This document shows, in pieces, positions 1,764 through 10,610 of a stretch of 10,610 bases of DNA. Below the pieces are notes generated by a model, which was not told where the DNA came from, ran no database searches, and saw only the letters and a list, made by a program, of their open reading frames with translations. The translations under genes were made by a program, and so were the position numbers. The stretch lies in the IMG/VR virus record IMGVR_UViG_2531839178_000012, positions 1 through 10,610 of that record; one strand, given 5' to 3'. The stretch comes from a virus (lineage: Duplodnaviria; Heunggongvirae; Uroviricota; Caudoviricetes). Each line of letters opens with the position of its first letter. Position 1 is the stretch's first letter.

Positions 1764-1837
1764 GTTTTTCTCCTTAATTAAGGTTGAGCGAATCCCTGCC
1801 ATTGCTGGCATAAATTCAGTTTCGAATAGTCAGTTAA

Positions 1838-2119
1838 TTAAAGTTCGTGTGCCATCTGGTCTTTTTCGGCGCAGATTTCACTACAATATTTGCGTTTCTT
1901 TTTCCTCATCATGGTTCCGTGCATGTAAATAAGTTCAGCAGTGTAAGCCTTATCAGGGCTTACTTGTCTGTCACACAGGCCATAAGCACAGGGAATTAAA
2001 TCGGGATCACCTTTCTGCTGGAGGGTTTTTTTGATTATCCATAACAATTTTTTGATTCCGGTGTGTGTTATGGTCTGCTGAGGTGCAGAGGTAAAACAAT
2101 AATCAAGCATAGGGTTCAT
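1838..2119 (-). CDS. Cys-rich small protein, 93 aa, possible zinc-binding (Cx4C ... Cx3C)
   Basis: ATG at 2119 with GGAG 8 nt upstream, starting 16 nt after the Rha-like stop (operon-like). Cys pairs CAYGLC and CSEIC about 30 residues apart, plus a basic patch RKKKRK. Confidence 0.55.
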   Translation of the reverse strand: MNPMLDYCFTSAPQQTITHTGIKKLLWIIKKTLQQKGDPDLIPCAYGLCDRQVSPDKAYTAELIYMHGTMMRKKKRKYCSEICAEKDQMAHEL

Positions 2120-2135
2120 ATCCGTAGCTCCATTT

Positions 2136-2684
2136 TTATTTTAAAGAAAGTAATTGTTCCACAGTCATATTTTTAATTGCGCCCCGGTTAACAAGAGTCC
2201 ATCCCTGTTTTTCCAGATAAAACCGGAAAGTCTCCAGGGTACAGACCAGTGCGCCATCAGGAACGGTTTCGGTGAATTCGACATTGCCGAATTTGTCGAA
2301 GTGAACAACCAGAGTGCGACCATCACCCGGAATCATCTTGTCAGCAGGTGGGGTGTTATTCTGGCGCAGTTCGGCCTCCATGCGGTCGAACTCAGCAATG
2401 TAGGCTTCCTTGAATGCGGCGGCTTTTTTGCCAGTGAAGCCCATCACCAGGAAAACGAAGCCGTTTTTGGTGATTTGGTACATTGGGAGTTTGCGCCCGG
2501 TTGAGTCGGTGTATTCGCTCGCCTCAAAATTGAGGGCAGTAAATTTATCTGAGCATTCAATATTTGCGATGGCACGTAACACATTGTCGTGTCGTTTGTG
2601 GAAGAACTCTGCAACCGCAACAGACGTAGTGACAGCGCGACCGTTTTCTACGGTTACACAAGGGTGAGAAAGGGTAGTAGCCAT
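2136..2684 (-). CDS. Rha-family phage regulatory protein (Phage_pRha-type N-terminal domain), 182 aa
   Basis: Segment VAEFFHKRHDNVLRAIANIE ... MYQITKNGFVFLVMGFTGKKAAAFKEAYIAEFDRMEAELR matches Rha-family motifs I recall (KRHDNVLR, GF.LLVMG.TGKKA). ATG at 2684 has GGAGG 8 nt upstream and puts the Rha domain at the N-terminus, as is typical. The track ORF extends in frame to 2978 (280 aa); see findings. Confidence 0.8.
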   Translation of the reverse strand: MATTLSHPCVTVENGRAVTTSVAVAEFFHKRHDNVLRAIANIECSDKFTALNFEASEYTDSTGRKLPMYQITKNGFVFLVMGFTGKKAAAFKEAYIAEFDRMEAELRQNNTPPADKMIPGDGRTLVVHFDKFGNVEFTETVPDGALVCTLETFRFYLEKQGWTLVNRGAIKNMTVEQLLSLK

Positions 2685-2850
2685 GATGGCAGCCTCCGCG
2701 ATGAATTTGATTAACTCACCACCGGAGGTAGCAATCTCATGGGTGGTGAGACGTACAGGGTTGCTACAACCGGTCATCACGGAACCCGGCCAGTCTTGCG
2801 ACTGCCCCGCACGCCCCACCATAATTTGAATGTGGCTGTGCATTACGCAT

Positions 2851-2873
2851 AAAAAAACCGCCTGAGCGCGGTT
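2851..2873 (-). terminator. Possible intrinsic terminator, minus-strand orientation
   Basis: Stem aaccgc/gcggtt with 6-nt loop (2856-2873); on the minus strand it is followed by T7 (complement of the A-run 2851-2857). Modest stem (4 GC pairs). It lies inside the optional N-terminal extension of the Rha ORF, so it conflicts with that longer gene model. Confidence 0.3.
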
Positions 2874-3379
2874 ATGCGCCGTGAATGACTTCGGGGTAGC
2901 AATCCCGGCACCCGTTTTATGAGGTGCAGGTGCACTATAATTCCACCCGTTCTGGTTTTCAATAGCTACATTCAACATTTTCTCTTTCCTTTCATCACCG
3001 AAGTGAACTTTGTTGATGCGGTGCCTGGTGCCTCCAGGTGACGTTAACCAGTTAATAATTAACGCCGGAATAAGGGATTTTCCTTACTGTTTTAACTGTT
3101 CCGCGTGCGCTGAGCCGCATTCACCGCATCACAAAATTCACTTTAAAAAGGGCGGACATCAGCCAGCAATTAAACCGATGCCGCCAACTGGTACTTCACA
3201 CAGCAATGTCGTTATTTACAACCGGAGGCGCACTCCCACCATTTAAATTTAACAGACAAGACCGACTCTTTATGGATACCGGAAATGCGCCTTCGTGTTG
3301 TGCCCGGTTTTATTTCACCACCTCCGGGCTTTGGTGGTATCTTTACTGAAGTTCTCGCACAACCAGTAAGGAAATGAAT

Positions 3380-3463
3380 ATGCCAACGTATCTCGCCAGA
3401 GTAGAACTATATAATGCTGAGCCAGAGGATTACGAAGGGCTTCATAAATATATGCTCTCACTA
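3380..3463 (+). pseudogene. 5' fragment of a small gene interrupted by IS630 (reconstituted ORF 78 aa)
   Basis: ATG at 3380 with AAGGA 8 nt upstream; the reading frame runs to the IS630 junction at 3463/3464 and continues in frame at 4619 after the IS (stop TGA 4769-4771). With the IS present the ORF stops at 3476-3478 inside the IS terminus. Confidence 0.55.
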
Positions 3464-4616
3464 AATAGCTGCGCTTAATACCGCTACACTTTTGCCAGTC
3501 CATGTTTGCCTCCGGGGAATGGGCTGACGGTTTCCATAAAATGGCGAACTTTTTTCAACAGTTGCCACATTGAGCGGCACTGATGATTACGCGTTATTGT
3601 GTCGTGAAGTGCCTGCCATAGCCGTTCAACATGATTCACCCATGGCGAGTAAACCGGCTGATAAATGCCCCTGAACTTCGGGTTCTCCTTCAGCCAGCTC
3701 TGTGTTTCCCGGCTTTTGTGGATAATGTAGTTGTCCACGATCAGCGTGATGGTTTTCGCCCGACGGTATGTCGCTTTAAGCCGCTTCAGCAGGCTGATGA
3801 ACAGCGCCGAACTTTTGCTGTTGCCGCCCACATAGCTGACTTTACCTGTCCCGCTGTGCAGCGCTCCGGCCAGATAATATTTTTCATTCTGTCCCGGCGT
3901 GACCACCCGTTTTTGCTGTCCGCGCAGTTGCCAGTCCGCACCGATTTTGGGATGAAGATGGATATCCACTTCATCTTCATAAAAGACCGGATGCTCTGCG
4001 CTGCATTCGTCCAGTGCTTTATGGATTGCTGCCATCTTTTCATCTTTATGCGGGTCACGGATACGCAGAGTTGGCGCAGCCCTTCGCCACACAATCCCCG
4101 CAGACGGCAACCAGCGGCGAACGGTTCCGGCATTTAACTGGCAACCGGTTATCTCATTGATTTTTATTGCCAGCAGTTCTGTACTCCAGCGTGAACGCTG
4201 GTAGCCAAAGTCGCCGGGAGAATGTTTTACCAGCTCACGTAACAGTGTGCAGATATGCTCAAACGGCCAGCGACGGGCACGCCCGGCAGGTAATGATTTC
4301 AGTCCCTCAACACCCGACTGCGTGAACCAGTTAATCCAGCGTCCAACAGAGGAACGGGCGCAGCAGAGCGTTCTGGCAACGTCGCTGACACGGTCGCCCC
4401 GGTGCAGCATCAGCATGGCAGTCAGTCTGCGGGCATAATTTTTATCGTGTGTTTTATGGATGGCTTTCTGCATCAGGCGTCGTTCGTCACGGGAAATTGG
4501 TGCTATGATCGGCATTGCTCAGTCCGGTTGGTGATTTGTTTTGATTTGGCGATTGTTCAGATCGCACAATCCGGGCTAAGTTCCCTCAAAGTGATCTACT
4601 ATTCCGCGCAGCTATT
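3464..4616 (-). mobile_element. IS630 (Tc1/mariner-related IS630 family), complete copy, 1153 bp
   Basis: Terminal inverted repeats AAATAGCTGCGC (3464-3475) and GCGCAGCTATTT (4605-4616). Flanked by TA (3462-3463) and TA (4617-4618) inside a C-TA...TA-G context, i.e. insertion into CTAG with TA duplication. Length 1153 bp agrees with IS630 as I recall it. Contains one 343-aa transposase ORF. Confidence 0.9.
3484..4515 (-). CDS. IS630 transposase, 343 aa
   Basis: Single long ORF filling the element. Sequence (MPIIAPISRDERRLMQKAIHKTHDKNYARRL ... DNYIIHKSRE ...) matches my recollection of the IS630 transposase, with an N-terminal HTH-like region and a C-terminal DDE-type region. Confidence 0.9.
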   Translation of the reverse strand: MPIIAPISRDERRLMQKAIHKTHDKNYARRLTAMLMLHRGDRVSDVARTLCCARSSVGRWINWFTQSGVEGLKSLPAGRARRWPFEHICTLLRELVKHSPGDFGYQRSRWSTELLAIKINEITGCQLNAGTVRRWLPSAGIVWRRAAPTLRIRDPHKDEKMAAIHKALDECSAEHPVFYEDEVDIHLHPKIGADWQLRGQQKRVVTPGQNEKYYLAGALHSGTGKVSYVGGNSKSSALFISLLKRLKATYRRAKTITLIVDNYIIHKSRETQSWLKENPKFRGIYQPVYSPWVNHVERLWQALHDTITRNHQCRSMWQLLKKVRHFMETVSPFPGGKHGLAKV

Positions 4617-4618
4617 TA

Positions 4619-4771
4619 GCATCCAGTAATCAGGTTAGCGAATTAACAATGTGGGTTAAACGACTGGTCAGTCAACTGAAAAAAGCTAAGCCTGACTGCA
4701 AATTACCGGAGAAGGCGATGGATTACCTGAAGCGAAATGGACTGATAAGCGTGGAGGATGTTTTACGATGA
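4619..4771 (+). pseudogene. 3' fragment of the IS630-interrupted small gene
   Basis: In frame with 3380..3463 once IS630 and one TA copy are removed. Encodes ...ASSNQVSELTMWVKRLVSQLKKAKPDCKLPEKAMDYLKRNGLISVEDVLR. Stop TGA 4769-4771 overlaps the ATG of the next ORF. Confidence 0.5.
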
Positions 4772-4851
4772 CCTGGCCTGAAGCATTCACCACGGTAGGA
4801 ATTGCAATGGCGGTGGCGCTGGTTGTGTATTCGATTTGCCGCTGGGGGTAA
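4768..4851 (+). CDS. 27-aa hydrophobic peptide (MTWPEAFTTVGIAMAVALVVYSICRWG), single predicted transmembrane helix
   Basis: The ATG overlaps the upstream stop in an ATGA arrangement (translational coupling). Hydrophobic core of about 17 residues. Followed by a hairpin at 4858-4876 (ccagccc/gggctgg). No recognisable family; existence of the gene is uncertain. Confidence 0.35.
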   Translation: MTWPEAFTTVGIAMAVALVVYSICRWG

Positions 4852-4880
4852 GGTAAACCAGCCCCGAACGGGCTGGTAAT

Positions 4881-5167
4881 TTAAAGAGGTAATTTGATGA
4901 TGGCTGTCAGTGCGCCAACAGCAACGACGAGCATGCCACCAAATCTGACGGTCAGTTGCAGGCTGAGTTTGTCTATTTTTGCATCAAGGGCTGCAATGTC
5001 GTTTTTAGTTCAGTTCTGACATCATTTAGGTCGCGCTTTGTGGCGACTTCTGCGGCTTCGTGAGAATCTTTCACTGCGGCAGATATAGCGCGCGCCTGAG
5101 CTGCCGGCATTCCTGCGGCTTCCAAGGTTTCGACGAACTTCAGTGTATCAAAATAGACCTGAGCCAT
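4881..5167 (-). pseudogene. DUF1640-like small tail-anchored protein, disrupted by a -1 frameshift in a homopolymer
   Basis: N-terminal ORF 5167..4973 (MAQVYFDTLKFVETLEAAGMPAAQARAISAAVK...) with GAAGGA 7 nt upstream of the ATG. The C-terminal part (DIAALDAKIDKLSLQLTVRFGGMLVVAVGALTAIIKLPL, stop 4883-4881) is in another frame. One extra A/T in the T5 run at 5002-5006 would restore a roughly 96-aa ORF. Confidence 0.6.
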
Positions 5168-5218
5168 GTTAAATCCTTCGTTGTTGGGGAATATTGTTAG
5201 TTTAGCCTGTAGTGGCTG

Positions 5219-5248
5219 TTGACGACAACGTTAATCCGGGGCTATATT
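5219..5248 (+). promoter_or_regulatory. Sigma70-type promoter, copy 1 of a duplicated late-promoter-like module
   Basis: -35 TTGACG (5219-5224), 18-bp spacer, -10 TATATT (5243-5248). Homologous to the promoter at 9400-9429 that directly follows the Q-like gene. Confidence 0.5.
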
Positions 5249-5293
5249 CCTCACGCGCCAGCAAAATCTGGCGTCGGGATTGGCGTCCCGGAT
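5234..5293 (+). repeat. 60-bp exact direct repeat, copy 1 (promoter -10 plus initial transcribed region)
   Basis: atccggggctatattcctcacgcgccagcaaaatctggcgtcgggattggcgtcccggat is identical at 5234-5293 and 9415-9474. Flanks are related upstream (CTGTTGAC[G/T]) and diverge downstream. Confidence 0.9.
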
Positions 5294-5331
5294 GTTTACG
5301 GAGCGATATGAGACGCGTCCGCGTCTTTTTT
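5255..5331 (+). ncRNA. Predicted short terminated transcript (about 77 nt), analogous to a lambdoid 6S/pR' leader RNA
   Basis: Predicted start about 7 nt after the -10; two hairpins (cgccag/ctggcg and cggga/tcccg), then an intrinsic terminator at 5311-5331. Existence of the transcript is inferred, not observed. Confidence 0.35.
5311..5331 (+). terminator. Intrinsic terminator (tR'-like)
   Basis: Stem agacgc (5311-5316) / gcgtct (5321-5326), loop gtcc, then T-run to 5331. Confidence 0.5.
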
Positions 5332-5494
5332 CATATCGTTTGCACAGTCACATTCGCGATTTATGGCGGGCTGTGTGGGGGAGCCGAAAGGCTCGCCGGT
5401 TTCCGTACCCGGTTACGCCAACCCTGCACAGTTCGCCACCAGTTCGATTGGCGTCGTCGGTGGCGATAATTTCCAAATGTACGGAGTTATCGTT

Positions 5495-6043
5495 ATGACC
5501 ACTCAAATCTCTGTTGAAACTCTCTCCCCGATCGCCCATAACCAGATACCTGTTATTACCACTGAACTTTTGGCGCAGTTGTACGGCACAGAAGCGATTC
5601 GCATTCAGCAAAATCACGCCAGAAACGCTGAACGTTTTATTGAAGGTAAGCATTTTTATAAGTTAGTGGGCGATGAGCTTAGAGGTATGAAGCACAGACT
5701 ATCTTTAAGCGAGTCTGTGAAAATTGCCCGTAACGTTCGCTCCCTCATTCTCTGGACAGAACGCGGAGCAGCACGTCACGCCAAAATGCTCGAAACCGAT
5801 CAGGCGTGGGAAGTATTCGAAAAATTGGAAGACTGCTACTTCAACCAGTACGAGAAAGATCGGGCTACGGGGAAAATGAACATCGATATTCACCTGGCGA
5901 TCCGTGATGATAAAACTGCCTTCATCCGAAGTTATGCGCCTGGTCAGCTGGTGACGGTTGAAGAAGCCCTGATGTTGCTTAAATCGCGCGGATGGCTGGT
6001 AATGCCGCGAGATGAATTTGCCGGAAAATTAATGGAGCTTTAA
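5495..6043 (+). CDS. ORF6N-domain (KilA-N-like) phage protein, 182 aa
   Basis: ATG at 5495 with GGAG upstream, in frame with the longer track ORF. Motifs LAQLYGTEAIRIQQNHARNAERFIEGKHFYKL ... LILWTERGAARHAKMLETDQAWEVFEKL fit the ORF6N family pattern as I recall it (L..LY...RN.ERF, LWTE.G). Confidence 0.8.
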   Translation: MTTQISVETLSPIAHNQIPVITTELLAQLYGTEAIRIQQNHARNAERFIEGKHFYKLVGDELRGMKHRLSLSESVKIARNVRSLILWTERGAARHAKMLETDQAWEVFEKLEDCYFNQYEKDRATGKMNIDIHLAIRDDKTAFIRSYAPGQLVTVEEALMLLKSRGWLVMPRDEFAGKLMEL

Positions 6044-6057
6044 CTGGTTAAATTAGC

Positions 6058-6083
6058 CCCGATATGGGAATTCCCATATCGGG
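6058..6083. repeat. 26-bp perfect palindrome (cccgatatgggaa|ttcccatatcggg) centred on GAATTC
   Basis: Perfectly self-complementary, 15 nt after the ORF6N stop codon; no U-tract follows it. Confidence 0.85.
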
Positions 6084-6110
6084 AGAACATTACCACCGGG
6101 GATAAAATGA

Positions 6111-6139
6111 TTTGCGGTGAAAGGGAAGTTAAGTAGAAT
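6111..6139 (+). promoter_or_regulatory. Candidate promoter of the hok mRNA
   Basis: -10 TAGAAT (6134-6139) with a weak -35 (tttgcg, 6111-6116). The predicted start near 6146 gives a 5' end GGGUGCUUGAGGCU..., resembling the 5' end of plasmid R1 hok mRNA as I recall it. Confidence 0.3.
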
Positions 6140-6204
6140 TGCTGCGGGTGCTTGAGGCTATCTGTCTCAGGCATGAACACCAAAAGGCAGATGAGAAGCC
6201 CCAG

Positions 6205-6265
6205 TTAACATTACGCGTCCTGCAAGACGCTTAACATTAATCTGAGGCCAATTTCATGCTAGACA
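6205..6265 (-). ncRNA. sok: Sok-like antisense RNA (antitoxin of the hok locus), predicted
   Basis: Minus-strand promoter -35 TTGCCT (6299..6294), 17-bp spacer, -10 TAACCT (6276..6271), mirroring the R1 sok promoter layout. The transcript would overlap the mok start codon and ribosome-binding region; hairpin 6214-6231 followed by UAAUGUUAA. Confidence 0.4.
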
Positions 6266-6468
6266 CATGTAGGTTAGCCTCTTACGTGCCGGAAGGCAAG
6301 GAGAAGCAGGCTATGAAGCAGCAAAAGGCGATGTTAGTCGCCCTGATCGTCATCTGTTTAACCGTCATAGTGACGGCACTGGTAACGAGGAAAGACCTCT
6401 GTGAGGTACGAATCCGAACCGGCCAGACGGAGGTCGCTGTCTTCGTAGACTACGAATCCAGGAAGTAA
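6256..6468 (+). CDS. mok: Mok-like reading frame (in-frame N-terminal extension sharing the hok stop), 70 aa
   Basis: ATG at 6256, in frame with and ending at the hok stop, as in chromosomal mokC/hokC. The start region is the predicted Sok target. Confidence 0.55.
   Translation: MLDTCRLASYVPEGKEKQAMKQQKAMLVALIVICLTVIVTALVTRKDLCEVRIRTGQTEVAVFVDYESRK
6313..6468 (+). CDS. hok: Hok/Gef-family type I toxin, 51 aa
   Basis: MKQQKAMLVALIVICLTVIVTALVTRKDLCEVRIRTGQTEVAVFVDYESRK is near-identical over the first 44 residues to E. coli HokD/RelF and HokC/Gef as I recall them. Confidence 0.85.
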   Translation: MKQQKAMLVALIVICLTVIVTALVTRKDLCEVRIRTGQTEVAVFVDYESRK

Positions 6469-6545
6469 GAGTGACCGGGCGGGGAGCTGATCCCATCCCC
6501 GCCCACCTCTGATGTGTCAGGCATCCTCAACGCACCCGCACTTAA

Positions 6546-6588
6546 CCCGCCCATCGCTGTGATCTCTCAGCGTTTCGGCGGGTTTTTT
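6546..6588 (+). terminator. Intrinsic terminator of the hok transcript
   Basis: Outer stem cccgcc (6546-6551) / ggcggg (6577-6582) with inner stem cgctg/cagcg, followed by T6 (6583-6588). A 9-bp GC hairpin (6477-6504) lies just after the hok stop. Confidence 0.6.
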
Positions 6589-6608
6589 GTTGTTTATTTC
6601 CGGTGAAT

Positions 6609-6636
6609 TTGATTTGCGCACCTTCGCAGATAGAAT
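6609..6636 (+). promoter_or_regulatory. Candidate sigma70 promoter of the nin-like operon
   Basis: -35 TTGATT (6609-6614), 16-bp spacer, -10 TAGAAT (6631-6636), about 80 nt upstream of the 6718 start codon. Confidence 0.35.
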
Positions 6637-6717
6637 CGACTCACTTAAGTAGCGCGCAGGGAGAAGAGGGATGGACCCCGAACAGGGGAGAGCTATTTAT
6701 CTGGAAGGATTCTGAAG

Positions 6718-7005
6718 ATGAAAATCGAAGAATTGCGTGAAATTTTTAGTGAAAATGGCCTCTATGCTGTGCGCGTTGAGAATGGAGCGATTGTCAGCCA
6801 TTGCCGCATTAGATGTTTGCAATCTCAACAAAGGAAGAGCGGTGCTGTGTTATTTTATTTTTGTAATGGACTTCTGACGGACGGTTTTATTTTGCGTGAG
6901 GACGAATTTGTCACATCATTACGGGTTTTGAAAGAGATTGGTTTTAAGGCTGGTTTTCTGCTTTTGCTGAAGAATAAACTCATCTACAATCTTGAGCAGG
7001 ATTGA
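6718..7005 (+). CDS. Hypothetical small phage protein, 95 aa (occupies the position of rem in Qin-like prophages)
   Basis: ATG at 6718 with GGAAGGA 8 nt upstream. The assignment is positional only (hok - this ORF - DUF1367 - ... - Q). Confidence 0.55.
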   Translation: MKIEELREIFSENGLYAVRVENGAIVSHCRIRCLQSQQRKSGAVLFYFCNGLLTDGFILREDEFVTSLRVLKEIGFKAGFLLLLKNKLIYNLEQD

Positions 7006-7043
7006 ACTCCTGCTGTGTAACACCGTGCCACCGGAGAAAGCCG

Positions 7044-7643
7044 ATGGCACATATACAACTGGTCAAACAAACCTTTTCCGGATTACTTCTCCCGGCGACG
7101 CCGGAGAGTTGCGATTTTCTGCATCAAATCAAAATAGGTGAGTGGATACACGCAGACTTTAAGCGTGTGCGTAACTACGCATTCCACAAGCGTTTTTTCA
7201 AACTCCTGCAACTGGGTTTCGATTACTGGACTCCGGTCGGTGGGGCGATCACGCCTCGCGAACGAAAACTGGTGTCCGGTTTCGTTGATTACCTGTGTGA
7301 ATCAGTAGGCCGGGAACATACGCCAGCTCTGAGCGAAGCCGCAGAGCAATATCTGAATACAGTTGCGACACGCAGAACCCGTGATACGGCATTGCTAAAG
7401 TCGTTTGAGGCTTTCCGCGAGTGGGTAACCATTCAGGCCGGATTTTACACCGAGCATATTTATCCTGATGGTAGTCGTGGGCGCAGGGCAAAATCTATCG
7501 CATTTGCGAACATGGACGAAACCGAGTTTCAGCAGGTTTATAAATCTGTACTGAATGTGCTGTGGAACTGGATCCTGTTCCGTAAATTCTCCTCTCCGGA
7601 GGAAGTCGAAAATGTGGCCGCGCAGCTACTGGAGTTTGCGTAA
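7044..7643 (+). CDS. DUF1367-family phage protein (YdfU-like), 199 aa
   Basis: ATG at 7044 with GGAG 7 nt upstream. Family assignment from recalled similarity and the conserved position upstream of DUF1364 and Q. Confidence 0.75.
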   Translation: MAHIQLVKQTFSGLLLPATPESCDFLHQIKIGEWIHADFKRVRNYAFHKRFFKLLQLGFDYWTPVGGAITPRERKLVSGFVDYLCESVGREHTPALSEAAEQYLNTVATRRTRDTALLKSFEAFREWVTIQAGFYTEHIYPDGSRGRRAKSIAFANMDETEFQQVYKSVLNVLWNWILFRKFSSPEEVENVAAQLLEFA

Positions 7644-7933
7644 TGGTGGATTTACGTAAAGCGGCGCGGGGGCAGATGTGCACCGTCAGAATTCCTGGCT
7701 ACTGCAATCACGATCCGGAAACGTCTGTGCTGGCGCATTACCGACTGGCGGGAACGTGCGGAACAGCGACAAAACCACACGATATGCAGGCGGCGATTGC
7801 CTGTAGCTCATGCCACGATTTAATCGACGGGCGGGTAAAAACAAGCGATTACACCAAAGAAGAATTACGCCTGATGCATGCAGAAGGTGTTTTTCGCACG
7901 CAAGAAATCTGGAGAAAGGAAGGTTATTTATGA
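7643..7933 (+). CDS. DUF1364-family protein (YbcO-like), 96 aa
   Basis: TAATG start overlap with the previous gene. Motifs DLRKAARG.MC.VRIPG.CN..PETSVLAH.RL ... IACSSCHD match YbcO of prophage DLP12 as I recall it. Confidence 0.8.
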   Translation: MVDLRKAARGQMCTVRIPGYCNHDPETSVLAHYRLAGTCGTATKPHDMQAAIACSSCHDLIDGRVKTSDYTKEELRLMHAEGVFRTQEIWRKEGYL

Positions 7934-8254
7934 TTTACCCAACAAATACAGGCAAAAGCGGGGAACACCTTCGTCTCACCACGCTGGAAAGTGTCTGGAT
8001 TCAGGGAAAACTGCGCATGTGGGGGCGCTGGTCGTATATTGGCGGCGGTAAGACGGGGAATATGTTCAACCAGTTGTTGGCCTCTAAAAAGCTGACAAAA
8101 ACGGCAATTAACGAGGCGCTCCGGAGGATGAAAAAAGCAGGTCTGGACAAACCTGAACTTGAGGCTTTTTTGCGGGATATGATCAACGGCAAGCAAAAAA
8201 GCTGGCTGGTGCATTGTACTGATGCAGAGGCGTTATGCATTGATCGGGTGATTA
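7930..8254 (+). pseudogene. Q-like late antiterminator, 5' part, interrupted by an IS5-family element
   Basis: ATGA start overlap with the DUF1364 gene. The frame runs to the IS junction at 8254/8255 and, after removing the IS and one TA, continues in frame at 9174 to the stop at 9401-9403 (about 184 aa). A WG.W motif near the N-terminus and the position after a ybcO-like gene and before a promoter module suggest a Q-type antiterminator; family assignment is tentative. Confidence 0.55.
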
Positions 8255-8265
8255 GGCTGTGTCCC

Positions 8266-8571
8266 TTAATTACGTAAGCGTTGATAAAAGAGTCGGATGC
8301 AGCCCAGTTTCACCATCGCCAGGTAATTTCTCGCCGTTTTGTCGTAACGCGTGGCGATGCGGCGATATTCTTTCAGCCGCCCAAAGCACCGTTCAACGAC
8401 ATTACGATTGCAGTACGCATCACGATCAAGCTGTGCACGTCCATCCGATGCCATTTTCTCATTTGACTTTCGGGGGATTACTGCCTTTATACCGTTATTT
8501 TTCAGCTCGTTGCGCAATGCGCGCCCTGAATACGCTTTATCAGCCAGTACCGCATGTCCACGGCGTTTCAT
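8266..8571 (-). CDS. IS5-family transposase, C-terminal ORF (OrfB)
   Basis: C-terminal motif VVERCFGRLKEYRRIATRYDKTARNYLAMVKLGCIRL resembles the IS5-family signature. The frame is open upstream to about 8646 and overlaps the OrfA frame region, suggesting frameshift expression or a degenerate copy. Confidence 0.6.
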   Translation of the reverse strand: MKRRGHAVLADKAYSGRALRNELKNNGIKAVIPRKSNEKMASDGRAQLDRDAYCNRNVVERCFGRLKEYRRIATRYDKTARNYLAMVKLGCIRLFYQRLRN

Positions 8572-8661
8572 GCTGCCGTTCTGACGCTGAACGCCAATCC
8601 CGTCCAGAAGTCGTTGCGCGAACTGGCTTTCATGAGCTTGTCCGGGGGCTTAGCACGATAT

Positions 8662-9111
8662 TTATCGGGAGGCCACTTCCGTCTGTTGCCAGATGGATTT
8701 TGGTGCCAAAACCGCCGCGAGAGCGACCCAGCCCATTATCTCCGTCGATATCGGGATGTTTTTTTGAGCACCGGCGGCACATTTCAGCGCCCGGATATTA
8801 CTGCCATCCAGCGCGGTGGCAGACCAGTCAATAAAGCCGTTTGCATCAAGTAGCGAAAGCAACCTGTTGAAAATAATATTAATCACGCCTGACTTAGACC
8901 ATCGGTTAAAGCGGTTATAAACAGTTTTCCATGACCCATATCGTTCGGGTAAATCGCGCCATGGTGCACCGGAACATAACACCCAGAACATGCCATTGAT
9001 GATTTTACGGTGCTCAGCCCATGGGCGTCCGGCCCGTGGTGTGGCGGGTTCAGGAGGTAACAGGGGCTTGATGATGGTCCATGCCTCATCGGGAAGGTCG
9101 TAGCGAGCCAT
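8662..9111 (-). CDS. IS5-family transposase, N-terminal ORF (OrfA), 149 aa
   Basis: MARYDLPDEAWTIIKPLLPPE ... APWRDLPERYGSWKTVYNRFNRW is a typical IS5-family N-terminal motif set. Confidence 0.7.
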   Translation of the reverse strand: MARYDLPDEAWTIIKPLLPPEPATPRAGRPWAEHRKIINGMFWVLCSGAPWRDLPERYGSWKTVYNRFNRWSKSGVINIIFNRLLSLLDANGFIDWSATALDGSNIRALKCAAGAQKNIPISTEIMGWVALAAVLAPKSIWQQTEVASR

Positions 9112-9173
9112 AGTTCAATATGTTGTGTAAACAGACAGTTACTATAGCTCAGATGATTAAGGGACACAGCCTA

Positions 9174-9403
9174 GTGAAGTGCTGGCAGAACACCCAGGAT
9201 TGATTTGTATCCTCCGGCAACGATATGAAGGGAGGGGGATGACTAAGCGAAAAATGGCTGAATTGCTGAATGATTCACACCCTGAGTGGTGTTACGCCAC
9301 GTGCCGTAATCGCATAGATGCGTGGTTGAAAATGGCAGAGTTTATGCTCTATCTGCCGATGCGTGATGCATTCTCTTCCGGGGATTTAAAAACTGTCTGT
9401 TGA
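9174..9403 (+). pseudogene. Q-like antiterminator, 3' part, separated from the 5' part by the IS5-family insertion
   Basis: In frame with 7930..8254 across the reconstructed insertion site. The track's ORF 9179..9403 begins at a GTG read as M, so it is not an independent gene. Confidence 0.5.
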
Positions 9404-9429
9404 CTCAATCTGTTATCCGGGGCTATATT
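9400..9429 (+). promoter_or_regulatory. Late-promoter-like sigma70 promoter (pR'-like), copy 2, immediately after the Q-like gene
   Basis: -35 TTGACT (9400-9405, overlapping the Q stop codon), 18-bp spacer, -10 TATATT (9424-9429). Lambda pR' also has a TTGACT -35 as I recall it. The transcribed region is identical to copy 1 for 60 bp. Confidence 0.5.
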
Positions 9430-9474
9430 CCTCACGCGCCAGCAAAATCTGGCGTCGGGATTGGCGTCCCGGAT
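9415..9474 (+). repeat. 60-bp exact direct repeat, copy 2
   Basis: Identical to 5234-5293. Identity ends a few bp before the IS911-like element begins. Confidence 0.9.
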
Positions 9475-9481
9475 ATCGAAA

Positions 9482-10421
9482 TGAGGTGTACTGGCAATAG
9501 CGGACACTACCATTTGTCTTTTTTTAAGCAGCCATCTGATGATATTTTTCCCTGAAGGCTGCCGGGGAGATATTCCCCAGACGAGAGTGACGACGCTGAC
9601 GATTGTAGAAAATCTCAATGTATTCCCGTATTACTGAGATGGCTTCATCCCGGTTATTAAAACGATAGTGGCTCAGGCTCTCATTTTTCAGCGTTCCCCA
9701 GAAGCTTTCCATCGGAGCGTTGTCGTAACAGTTACCTTAACGGCGACATTGGATGTTTTCAGACCAAACTGCTCCTGTATGACCCGGTAATCGTATGCGC
9801 AGTACTGTGAACCTCGATCAGAGTGGTGGATTAGCCCGGCAGGTGGGCGCTGGCTCCTGAGCGCCATAAACAGGGCTTTACCTGTCAGCTCTTTTGTCAT
9901 GCGCTCTCCCATGGCGTAGCCGACAATTTTGCACGTATAAACATCTTTGATGCCAGCGAGGTACAACCATCCCTCCTGTGTGGCAACATACGTCAGGTCC
10001 GCCACCCAGACCTGATTTGGTGCTGTAGGAGCGAACGTCTGGTTCAACAGATTTGGCGCAACTGGCAGATTGTGGTTCGGGTTCGTAGTCGCTCTGAACT
10101 TGCGTTTCTGCTTACAGCGTAGCCTTAGCTCCTTACGAAGACGTGCCAGTCGGTCACGACCAACGATGATGCCATTCTCTGCCAGCTCCGTCTGGAGCCG
10201 CCGGGTTCCATATGTTTCGCGAGTGCGGATATGTGCCACCTTAATCTCCAGTTTTAGCCGCTCATCACTTTGTTTTCTGTCTGAGGGTTCATGCTGTACC
10301 CAGTTGTAATAACCGCTCCTGGATACACCAAATACCTGACACATCGCTTCAATGGGAAATTGTTGTCGCCATTGTTCGATTAACGCGTATTTTTCAGCGA
10401 CTCCTGTGCAAAATACGCTGT
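9482..10421 (-). mobile_element. IS3-family (IS911-like) element remnant, truncated at its orfA side by IS30
   Basis: Contains an IS911-type orfB on the minus strand and only the last codons of orfA. The terminus near 9482 starts TGAGGTG (IS3-family ends begin TG). The inner boundary is set by the IS30 end at 10422. The left boundary is approximate. Confidence 0.7.
9524..10344 (-). pseudogene. insO: IS911-type transposase OrfB (InsO-like), inactivated by indels
   Basis: ORF 10344..9688 (MCQVFGVSRSGYYNWVQHEPSDRKQ ... HSDRGSQYCAYDYRVIQEQFGLKTS) and ORF 9712..9524 (MESFWGTLKNESLSHYRFNNRDEAISVIREYIEIFYNRQRRHSRLGNISPAAFREKYHQMAA) are two halves of one IS3-family OrfB. Several small indels near 9700-9730 break the expected SRKGNCYDNAP segment. 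Confidence 0.8.
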
Positions 10422-10610
10422 TGTAGATTCAATCTGTCAATGCAACACCCCTTTCAATTATCTCTTTCGGTGTTTTGAACTTCAGTGTCTTTCTCGGTCT
10501 GTTGTTTAGCTGAGCAGCAACCAGATCTAGTTCATGTTGAGTATATTGGGCAAGACATGTCTTTTTAGGAAAGTACTGCCGAATTAGCCCATTTGTGTTC
10601 TCATTTGTTC
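10422..10610 (-). mobile_element. IS30, terminal 189 bp of a copy that continues beyond the right window edge
   Basis: The terminus TGTAGATTCAATCTGTCAATGCAACACC starting at 10422 matches the IS30 end as I recall it. The transposase C-terminus is encoded on the minus strand. Confidence 0.75.
10429..10610 (-). CDS. insI: IS30 transposase, C-terminal fragment (5' part of the gene is outside the window)
   Basis: Minus-strand translation ends ...FPKKTCLAQYTQHELDLVAAQLNNRPRKTLKFKTPKEIIERGVALTD, the characteristic IS30 transposase C-terminus (LNNRPRK..L.F.TP.E). Stop at 10431..10429. Confidence 0.75.
   Translation of the reverse strand, partial: TNENTNGLIRQYFPKKTCLAQYTQHELDLVAAQLNNRPRKTLKFKTPKEIIERGVALTD

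Follow-up and report, generated by a model that had tools for sequence, protein, structure and literature searches.

The segment at positions 9400-9481 is probably the promoter and 5′ leader of an antirepressor cassette of the P1 immI type (IsrK/C4), split by an IS600 insertion. It overlaps the end of a disrupted Q-like gene, and a sequence-only reading had taken it for the late promoter pR′, an assignment that our results do not support. The window, i.e. the whole stretch of DNA analysed (10,610 bp), is the entire contig AKNA01000039.1 of Shigella boydii 965-58. Our assignment is based on how closely the sequences agree, on the anatomy of the cassette, on covariation in the paired segments, on the junctions of the insertion and on the distribution across genomes. 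Promoter activity, the transcription start (+1), the b1:b′ pairing and IsrK-dependent translation of AnrP have been established in Gifsy-1 (PMC4825925), and by analogy activity of this type would also apply to the 9400 copy. The cassette itself is an already described and widely distributed element; what is found here is an IS-split copy in a decayed prophage.

The promoter and its leader

The promoter TTGACT-18-TATATT, described from the sequence alone as overlapping the stop codon of the Q-like gene (TGA, 9401-9403), is indeed present. The motif scan gives it 10/12 consensus matches with a spacer of 18 nt, and its elements, together with those of the leader, are as follows.

9400-9405, plus strand: −35 hexamer TTGACT of a PisrK-type promoter; TTGAC is invariant across the Q-adjacent copies
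9424-9429, plus strand: −10 hexamer TATATT, invariant save in the diverged copy 3
9436, plus strand: predicted transcription start, +1 of the IsrK-like leader (position 1 of the Rfam isrK model)
9436-9471, plus strand: two 5′ hairpins of the IsrK-like leader (Rfam c4-a1b1, folds, b1:b′ covariation)
9461-9467, plus strand: b1 target site TTGGCGT
9476-9481, plus strand: a1 target site TCGAAA(C), truncated by IS600 and complementary to the C4 loop GTTTCGA of the sister assembly L004

Positions 9400-9473 are 90.7% identical to the isrK promoter of Gifsy-1, which is itself experimentally defined. The Rfam isrK model starts at 9436, exactly 7 nt past the −10 hexamer, and setting the Gifsy-1 +1 likewise 7 nt after TATATT fits all the published mutation numbers (C18, G28, G31, A107, C159, C162 and G173). 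Position 9436 is thus the homologue of the experimentally used +1. The Rfam family c4-a1b1 (RF03163) scores 52.9 bits at 9423-9475, above its gathering threshold of 46.7. An Rfam isrK match at 9436-9524 was rejected as partly spurious: its 3′ 43 nt are IS600 sequence, it folds no better than shuffled sequence (z-score −1.63), and it was not picked up by the terminator scan. Within the window, the 9436 copy has no intrinsic terminator closing an IsrK RNA of ~77 nt, the end of IS600 standing in its place, and no C4 RNA downstream of 9482; the latter is present in the sister assembly.

It could be argued that these hexamers are a chance motif, or the dead relic of a promoter that is no longer transcribed. 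The prophage is heavily decayed, and promoter-like motifs are no more frequent in the window than in shuffled sequence: there were 3 matches in 4800-9700 at a threshold of at least 9/12, not above the 5.4±2.0 of the shuffles, and 3 in the whole window at 10/12 or better, not significantly different from the expected 1.7±1.3. We nevertheless judge the promoter to be real, on homology and conservation and not on motif count. TTGA and TATATT are invariant in 6/6 aligned cassette copies, which come from different genera, the homologous Gifsy-1 promoter has measured activity, and no mutation sets the 9400 copy apart from the copies of the active type. A chance or relic origin is therefore hardly credible.

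Two other copies of the cassette are found in the window.

5219-6043, plus strand: intact paralogous cassette, copy 1 (Rfam, motif scan, Pfam, pairing)
5219-5248, plus strand: promoter of copy 1, followed by its IsrK (5255-5331) and C4 (5359-5443)
5448-5454, plus strand: b2 site of copy 1, followed by a2 over the Shine-Dalgarno sequence (5479-5485) and the ORF6N antirepressor gene (5495-6043)
2136-2960, minus strand: third, diverged cassette, copy 3, with isrK at 2851-2927, C4 at 2739-2826 and a gene for a Rha-family regulator downstream

Rfam thus recovers complete isrK and C4 pairs at 5255-5443 (plus strand) and 2739-2927 (minus strand), and neither copy has a Q gene upstream. The copy 1 promoter, TTGACG-18-TATATT, is a twin of the one at 9400, the two lying in an 81-nt direct repeat (5213-5293 and 9394-9474, 90% identity). 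A 60-bp core had been noted as conserved between them, with the IS as its downstream boundary. The core stands, 5234-5293 being identical to 9415-9474, while the divergence after 9474 turns out to be an allelic difference in a1 and not the IS boundary. The ORF6N antirepressor encoded by copy 1 is 56% identical to AnrP of Gifsy-1, and the ORF6N proteins of these cassettes range from 52 to 56% identity with AnrP over their full length.

Beyond the window, the cassette promoter and leader are present in 281 phage records. Comparison with related prophages downstream of the promoter, which the sequence-only reading had called for, gave a direct view of an intact locus. E. coli LWY24, 98.9% identical as far as 9475, has in succession Q, promoter, isrK, C4, ORF6N, a hypothetical gene, holin, endolysin, Rz and terminase. 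Stx phages have the cassette promoter and leader within the nin region, where an ORF6N-like gene and roi follow; Q, with its own pR′, comes 2.5 kb further downstream.

The insertion and the genes beyond it

An IS3-family element at 9482 does separate the promoter from its downstream genes, as had been read from the sequence.

9482-10421, minus strand: IS600 (IS3 family), the end carrying the 3′ end of the transposase gene (99.2-99.4% identity; rve and HTH_21 domains)
10422-10610, minus strand: IS30 lying within IS600; the contig ends inside IS30

The element had been called IS911. This identity was rejected, the matches being annotated as IS3-like element IS600 family transposase at 99.2-99.4% identity; the insertion is an IS600 that carries IS30. 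Native sequence reaches 9481, the base to which the matches with Stx phages extend, and the 3-bp target duplication is AAA, one copy of which occupies 9479-9481. The a1 site is consequently cut after six of its seven nucleotides (TCGAAA|C).

What lies on the other side is visible in the sister assembly L004, which was found via the truncated Q protein and is 99.85% identical across positions 1771-10610 of the window, with the same junctions. (In an exact-match scan of genome contigs, the promoter/IS600 junction gave no match.) In L004 the IS600::IS30 composite measures 2487 bp and is flanked by AAA, as a simple insertion. The IsrK terminator comes directly past the IS (14042-14072), followed by C4 (14097-14181; 68.7 bits with Rfam) and an ORF6N gene (14233-14790) whose product is 52% identical to AnrP, with an a2 site TCGAAAC adjoining its Shine-Dalgarno sequence. 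Further on come a terminator, four tRNAs, holin, lysozyme, Rz, a TrkH gene and terminase.

The late or lysis genes that this promoter was said to have driven had been described as gone or displaced. Loss and rearrangement were both rejected: the insertion is a simple one with a duplication of 3 bp, the remainder of the cassette, a pR′-like element, the tRNAs, the lysis genes and terminase follow 2487 bp further on in L004, and no late genes have been lost. We infer from L004 that the same continuity would hold past the end of the window in strain 965-58 itself. The proposed two-hit inactivation of late-gene control is likewise only half right. There are two IS insertions, but only the one in Q touches late control; the second disabled the antirepressor induction switch, not the late promoter.

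The prophage also carries IS630, and it is devoid of an immunity/replication region between the early-left genes and the nin region.

The disrupted Q-like gene

The gene upstream of the promoter had been read as an IS-disrupted Q-like gene, and this was borne out.

7930-8254, plus strand: N-terminal part of a Q-like gene (DUF1133, Q21-related; Pfam, PDB profile, Foldseek)
8255-9171, minus strand: IS5-family (ISSfl7-like) insertion in Q, 917 bp (inverted repeats; 99.6% identical to annotated IS5-family/ISSfl7 copies)
9174-9403, plus strand: C-terminal part of the Q-like gene with its stop TGA at 9401-9403 (DUF1133 fragment called at 9239-9403)

The IS5-family element is flanked by a TA target duplication (8253-8254 and 9172-9173), and excising 8255-9171 joins 7930-8254 to 9174-9403 in one frame of 184 aa. 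The reconstructed protein matches Pfam DUF1133 (E 3.9e-108), with a marginal match to Phage_antitermQ (PF06530; 26.6 bits), and is 92% identical to intact homologues. A profile built from the homologues has Q21 as its sole match in the PDB (E 1.2e-4), with collinear N- and C-terminal segments. In agreement, the top four PDB matches of Foldseek are all Q21, with TM scores of 0.57-0.65 normalised to the target; the query was a low-confidence AlphaFold model (pLDDT 58.6) of P0001, a homologue 92% identical to the reconstructed Q, and serves as supporting evidence only. In intact relatives the gene sits 3′ of DUF1367 and YbcO and 5′ of the lysis genes. The DUF1133 match, the Q21 matches in profile and fold and the gene order thus support the disrupted gene as a predicted Q antiterminator of the Q21 family.

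Pairing of C4 with the leader and the antirepressor mRNA

In six full cassettes, the unpaired C4 segments a′ and b′ are complementary to a1 and b1 of the leader as well as to a2 and b2, which adjoin the Shine-Dalgarno sequence of the antirepressor gene. Loop and target sequences change together from one cassette to another, with b′ of the types ACGCCAA, GTGCTAA, GTAGCAA and GTTCCAA, and a′ of the types TCCGTAC, GTTTCGA, CGGTGAT, GGTTTC and CCGTGA. In an alignment of nine cassettes, b1:b′ and b′:b2 are paired in 63/63 cells and compensatory changes occur in five of the seven b-site pairs, against 17-59% pairing in controls where the 3′ partner was slid by 1-3 columns. The published mutants G28A/C162U and G31A/C159U map exactly onto b1 and b′, and C4 of the sister assembly is complementary to b1 and a1 of the window. 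The conservation of the leader is thus accounted for by its pairing with C4.

A candidate late promoter nearer the late genes

The sequence-only reading had named as its own refutation homologous prophages with another promoter after Q and the 9400 sequence absent, and such cases exist. In vB_EcoS-683R6 and 666R9, the homologous Q is directly followed by a promoter/terminator unit unlike the 9400 promoter, with no Rfam match to isrK, a1/b1 or C4 in either phage; likewise, in 1559 complete E. coli genomes the 3′ end of Q is contiguous with this unit, leaving no isrK/C4 sequence between them. It comprises TTGATT overlapping the TGA, a 17-nt spacer, TGcTTCAAT, a −10-like TAYGCT close to +1, a leader with two hairpins and, at its end, a strong terminator, a layout that matches the published definition of Q-dependent units (promoter, −10-like pause element, terminator). 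Its −10 is atypical (TTCAAT, lacking A at position 2) and the exact hexamers are uncertain.

Each of the nine DUF1133-Q loci examined has this pR′-like unit, and in every case it lies closer to the late genes than Q and the cassette do. In cassette-bearing loci it comes immediately after ORF6N, upstream of the tRNA and lysis genes (14798-14912 in L004). Counted over complete E. coli genomes, the junction of Q with the cassette occurs in 129, and that of the ORF6N end with the unit also in 129. The cassette promoter, for its part, does not keep to its Q, since it occurs without Q and is missing after homologous Q genes. We consider that the unit after ORF6N is likely the real Q-dependent late promoter.

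Gifsy-1 displays the same arrangement with another Q. Its gene order is antQ, isrK, C4, anrP, isrJ and lysis genes, the isrJ element following anrP; in the cassette-less Klebsiella phage ST11-VIM1phi8.1 and Enterobacter phage CobraSix, isrJ lies 12-16 nt past the Q stop. IsrJ is the probable pR′ leader of Gifsy-1. In at least two unrelated Q families, the IsrK/C4 cassette lies between Q and what is probably the real late-promoter unit. The genetics of this prophage are also informative. PisrK drives isrK and a read-through isrK-orf45-anrP mRNA of ~910 nt (Hershko-Shalev et al. 2016, PMC4825925), which from the +1 at 4037 reaches the isrJ terminator at 4947 (4037 + 910). A fusion carrying PisrK gave 280 Miller units, as opposed to 3 when the promoter was missing; the read-through RNA is the trans target of short IsrK, which allows AnrP to be translated from it; AnrP raises antQ expression, and a strain deleted for PisrK still produces phage with AnrP in trans (PMC4825925).

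Could the 9400 promoter serve Q?

If the 9400 promoter were nevertheless a Q-dependent pR′, IsrK would be the equivalent of lambda 6S RNA, and Q would drive lysis and morphogenesis genes from it through the downstream terminators. The site has much of what is expected: the −35 overlaps the Q stop at the textbook pR′ position, the promoter is strong and in the orientation of the lysis genes, the late genes come after it on the same strand, and intact copies have an intrinsic terminator ~70 nt further on. The promoter is, moreover, the sole strict-consensus one between Q and holin in LWY24, closer to consensus than the candidate pR′, and strictly linked to the 184-aa Q allele, while the Gifsy-1 genetics bear on another Q family. 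Against this, the same promoter and leader are found in three upstream contexts, Q-less ones included, and Stx phages have them besides their own characterised pR′ after Q. The other unit follows homologous Q genes in 1559 genomes in place of the 9400 sequence, and it is retained downstream in all the cassette-bearing loci examined. In Gifsy-1, the read-through runs as far as the isrJ terminator, and phage production dispenses with PisrK once AnrP is given in trans; finally, C4 pairing explains why the leader is conserved. Taken together, we regard a late promoter at 9400 as very improbable.

A dual use of the site is somewhat easier to conceive, although we hold it to be unlikely as well. Near the 184-aa Q, the cassette promoter would then also be a Q-loading site, from which Q would antiterminate the IsrK terminator and boost the antirepressor by positive feedback, while still serving the pR′ further downstream; late-gene activation would in that case be coupled to antirepressor synthesis. 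The 184-aa allele is followed by a 9400-type promoter in all six loci examined, Salmonella and E. albertii included, which is not so for the 180-aa allele. A sharp divergence between the two alleles begins at about nt 445 and covers the C-terminal 36 aa, which align with a segment of Q21 that includes T125, a DNA-contacting residue of H6 in the H5-H6 helix-turn-helix. With this mosaic boundary the putative recognition segment travels together with the promoter, and the linkage could reflect a pair of Q and binding site rather than co-inheritance. Specific to the Q-adjacent version are CAATYTGTT, which forms the 5′ half of the spacer, and a repeat resembling it upstream, and a −10-like CAAAAT is present at +8 to +13 of the 9436 transcript. 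These repeats are, however, short, partly constrained by the coding of Q, and unlike the QBE of Q21 with its two 6-bp direct repeats spaced by 8 bp; no clear QBE for this Q family emerged when both promoters were searched for that arrangement. CAAAAT is equally conserved in Q-less copies, as it is a hairpin loop of the leader, and co-inheritance by linkage accounts for the association without any function. Since linkage suffices and CAAAAT is kept where there is no Q, we give little credit to Q loading and still less to a late promoter, and retain the IsrK/C4 cassette as our reading of the locus.

Comparison with known systems

In the immI logic of phage P1, an antisense RNA blocks translation of the antirepressor and upstream decoy sites lift this block. 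Citron and Schuster reportedly described in 1990 the P1/P7 immI operon, with the c4 antisense RNA, its a1/b1 and a2/b2 targets and icd-ant. The P4 CI RNA and the N15 CA RNA are relatives of the P1 c4 RNA (Rfam clan CL00128). The cassettes studied here share with P1/P7 a single promoter leading into decoy targets, a processed antisense RNA and an antirepressor mRNA with a second set of targets, and also the covariation of loop and target that makes immunity cassette-specific. They differ from P1 in that the leader is closed by a terminator of its own and works in trans as an activator (IsrK), that the antirepressor is of the ORF6N type and not P1 Ant, and that the host is a lambdoid prophage instead of a plasmid prophage.

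With Gifsy-1 PisrK the 9400 segment shares the −35/−10 architecture, the +1, the two 5′ hairpins, b1 TTGGCGT and the overlap with the end of Q, and the sister assembly adds the IsrK terminator, C4 (STnc1160) and the ORF6N antirepressor related to AnrP. The Q genes upstream are different, DUF1133/Q21-like here whereas AntQ of Gifsy-1 is phage 82-like, as is the a-site specificity (TCGAAAC/GTTTCGA here, TCACCG/CGGTGA in Gifsy-1). Unlike that of Gifsy-1, the copy in the window is interrupted by IS600::IS30 and comes after a disrupted Q.

Like the pR′-QBE-SDPE-tR′ units of lambda, 21 and 82 (10.1101/651190, PMC6606751), the 9400 promoter lies directly after Q, is strong and constitutive in type, and in its intact form yields a short terminated transcript. 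Unlike them, promoters of the 9400 type are without a demonstrated QBE or sigma-dependent pause, are not tied to one Q family and occur in the absence of Q, and the layout of a pR′ is seen in another unit, further downstream. A last parallel is StxS of Stx phages, also a constitutive, early-terminated phage transcript with a regulatory role in lysogeny (PMC7547250). StxS, however, originates from a true pR′ (PMC7547250), while IsrK is made from the promoter of an antirepressor cassette; at these loci, IsrJ or the unnamed leader after ORF6N would be the closer analogue.

Proposed mechanism and implications

In an intact cassette, a constitutive sigma-70 promoter would start RNA at the equivalent of 9436. 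Most transcripts would end at the intrinsic terminator, giving an IsrK RNA of ~77 nt with the a1 and b1 sites, and the read-through RNA would carry in turn the C4-type antisense RNA, to be processed out, and the mRNA of the ORF6N antirepressor, the AnrP homologue. By pairing with a2 and b2 at the ribosome-binding region of the antirepressor, the C4 loops a′ and b′ would prevent its translation; a1 and b1 of IsrK, competing for these loops in cis and in trans, would switch it on, and the antirepressor would then inactivate the prophage repressor. The cassette is a portable module, set here between the stop codon of Q and what is probably the real late promoter under Q control. After insertion of IS600 with its IS30 into a1, the promoter would yield no more than a shortened leader that enters IS600 in antisense orientation, and the terminator, C4, antirepressor, pR′-like element, tRNAs, lysis and terminase genes would sit 2.5 kb downstream of the IS-split promoter.

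A strong promoter overlapping the Q stop is thus not automatically pR′, and genome annotation as well as surveys of Stx or Q-type promoters could mislabel the promoter of an IsrK/C4 cassette as such. At this Shigella boydii locus, late-gene control was struck once, via the disruption of Q. By-products that may be of modest use in work on phages and sRNAs are a candidate pR′-tR′ unit for Q proteins of the DUF1133 type and the identification of IsrJ, probable as it is, with the Gifsy-1 pR′ leader. As for the leader truncated by the IS, its b1 is intact and identical to that of copy 1; a remaining activity in trans, on C4 RNAs made by the other cassettes in the genome, is conceivable but unlikely.

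Antirepressor cassettes and overlapping reading frames

The prophage remnant carries three IsrK/C4 antirepressor cassettes, and the specificities of their C4 loops differ:

Copy 1, window 5219-6043 (+): C4 loops a' TCCGTAC and b' ACGCCAA
Copy 2, window 9400-9481 (+): C4 loops a' GTTTCGA and b' ACGCCAA
Copy 3, window 2136-2960 (-): C4 loops a' CCGTGA and b' GTAGCAA

Since b is common to copies 1 and 2 but a is not, partial cross-talk between these two copies is conceivable. Cassettes 3 and 1 are set apart by an IS630-family element (window 3461-4619), which encodes a transposase of 343 aa on the minus strand and is bordered by inverted repeats of 20 nt (window 3461-3480 and 4600-4619). Rfam gives two sub-threshold matches upstream of cassette 3 (window 3009-3200, -), one to STnc100 at 33.5 bits and the other to DicF at 28.6 bits.

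Reading frames run across the RNAs of copies 3 and 1. A match to the Pfam family Phage_ASH (window 2667-2939, -) falls on the stretch of copy 3 that holds the isrK and C4 RNAs. This match corresponds to aa 14-104 of a 280-aa ORF (window 2136-2978, -), whose Rha-family domain starts only at aa 117. The Phage_ASH-matching part may be a conceptual translation of the RNA genes, or else an orf45-like frame. In copy 1, a stop-free frame leads from an ATG in the C4 5' end into the ORF6N gene (window 5363-6043, +), giving a single 226-aa ORF in place of a separate small ORF. This ATG is the equivalent of the orf45 start in Gifsy-1.

Q alleles and candidate late-gene control units

The DUF1133-type Q gene is mosaic, with a boundary at about nt 445 (window 9174-9403 compared with 3940-4042 of L007, a cassette-less phage with a homologous Q). 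The first 148 aa of the 184-aa allele of the window and of the 180-aa allele of L007 are about 90% identical, whereas the last 36 aa read CYATCRNRIDAWL in the former and CFSTCEKRIANWL in the latter. It is with this divergent end that the Q21 segment including T125 aligns.

Between Q and the late genes, all nine of the nine DUF1133-Q loci examined display a conserved unit composed of a promoter-like sequence, a -10-like sequence and a two-hairpin terminator. Examples, all lying outside the window, are:

L004 (sister assembly of the window) 14798-14912
L001 (E. coli LWY24) 7443-7560
L007 4040-4150

No Rfam family exists for this unit, which is a candidate for the pR'-tR' of this uncharacterised Q family.

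An isrJ element was located in the following genomes:

L002 (Gifsy-1) 4873-4947
L009 (Klebsiella phage ST11-VIM1phi8.1) 1833-1911
L010 (Enterobacter phage CobraSix) 1837-1910

In the cassette-less Klebsiella and Enterobacter phages, isrJ begins 12-16 nt beyond the stop codon of Q, with tRNA and lysis genes following it. The Salmonella sRNA IsrJ seems to be the short leader, ended by a terminator, of the phage 82-type late promoter; no statement to this effect was found in the literature searched. In the Klebsiella phage, a full STnc100 match lies directly after isrJ.

State of the prophage

The cI/cro and replication genes that would be expected to lie between exonuclease VIII and Rha, on the early-left side, and the nin region are absent, and the prophage is therefore a remnant. 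IS600 copies carrying IS30 at an identical insertion point are widespread: with window 9482-10610 as query, 2595 of the 5426 complete E. coli genomes give a match over 80% or more of its length. This arrangement seems either to be a composite that moves as one or to go back to an ancient insertion held in common.

ORFs at window 1838-2119, 4973-5167, 6764-7005 and 9524-10344 were compared with those of L004, which is 99.85% identical. YdaE (69 vs 93 aa) and a DUF1640-like ORF (64 vs 95 aa) are shorter in the window, while Rem (37+52 vs 95 aa) and IS600 orfB (62+218 vs 272 aa) are split. These short and split ORFs may reflect homopolymer errors of a draft assembly and not real pseudogenes.

The window also contains a type I toxin-antitoxin locus, which looks intact in its sequence:

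Window 6146-6468: hok/sok locus (sok, 96.3 bits)
Window 6313-6468: Hok ORF, 51 aa
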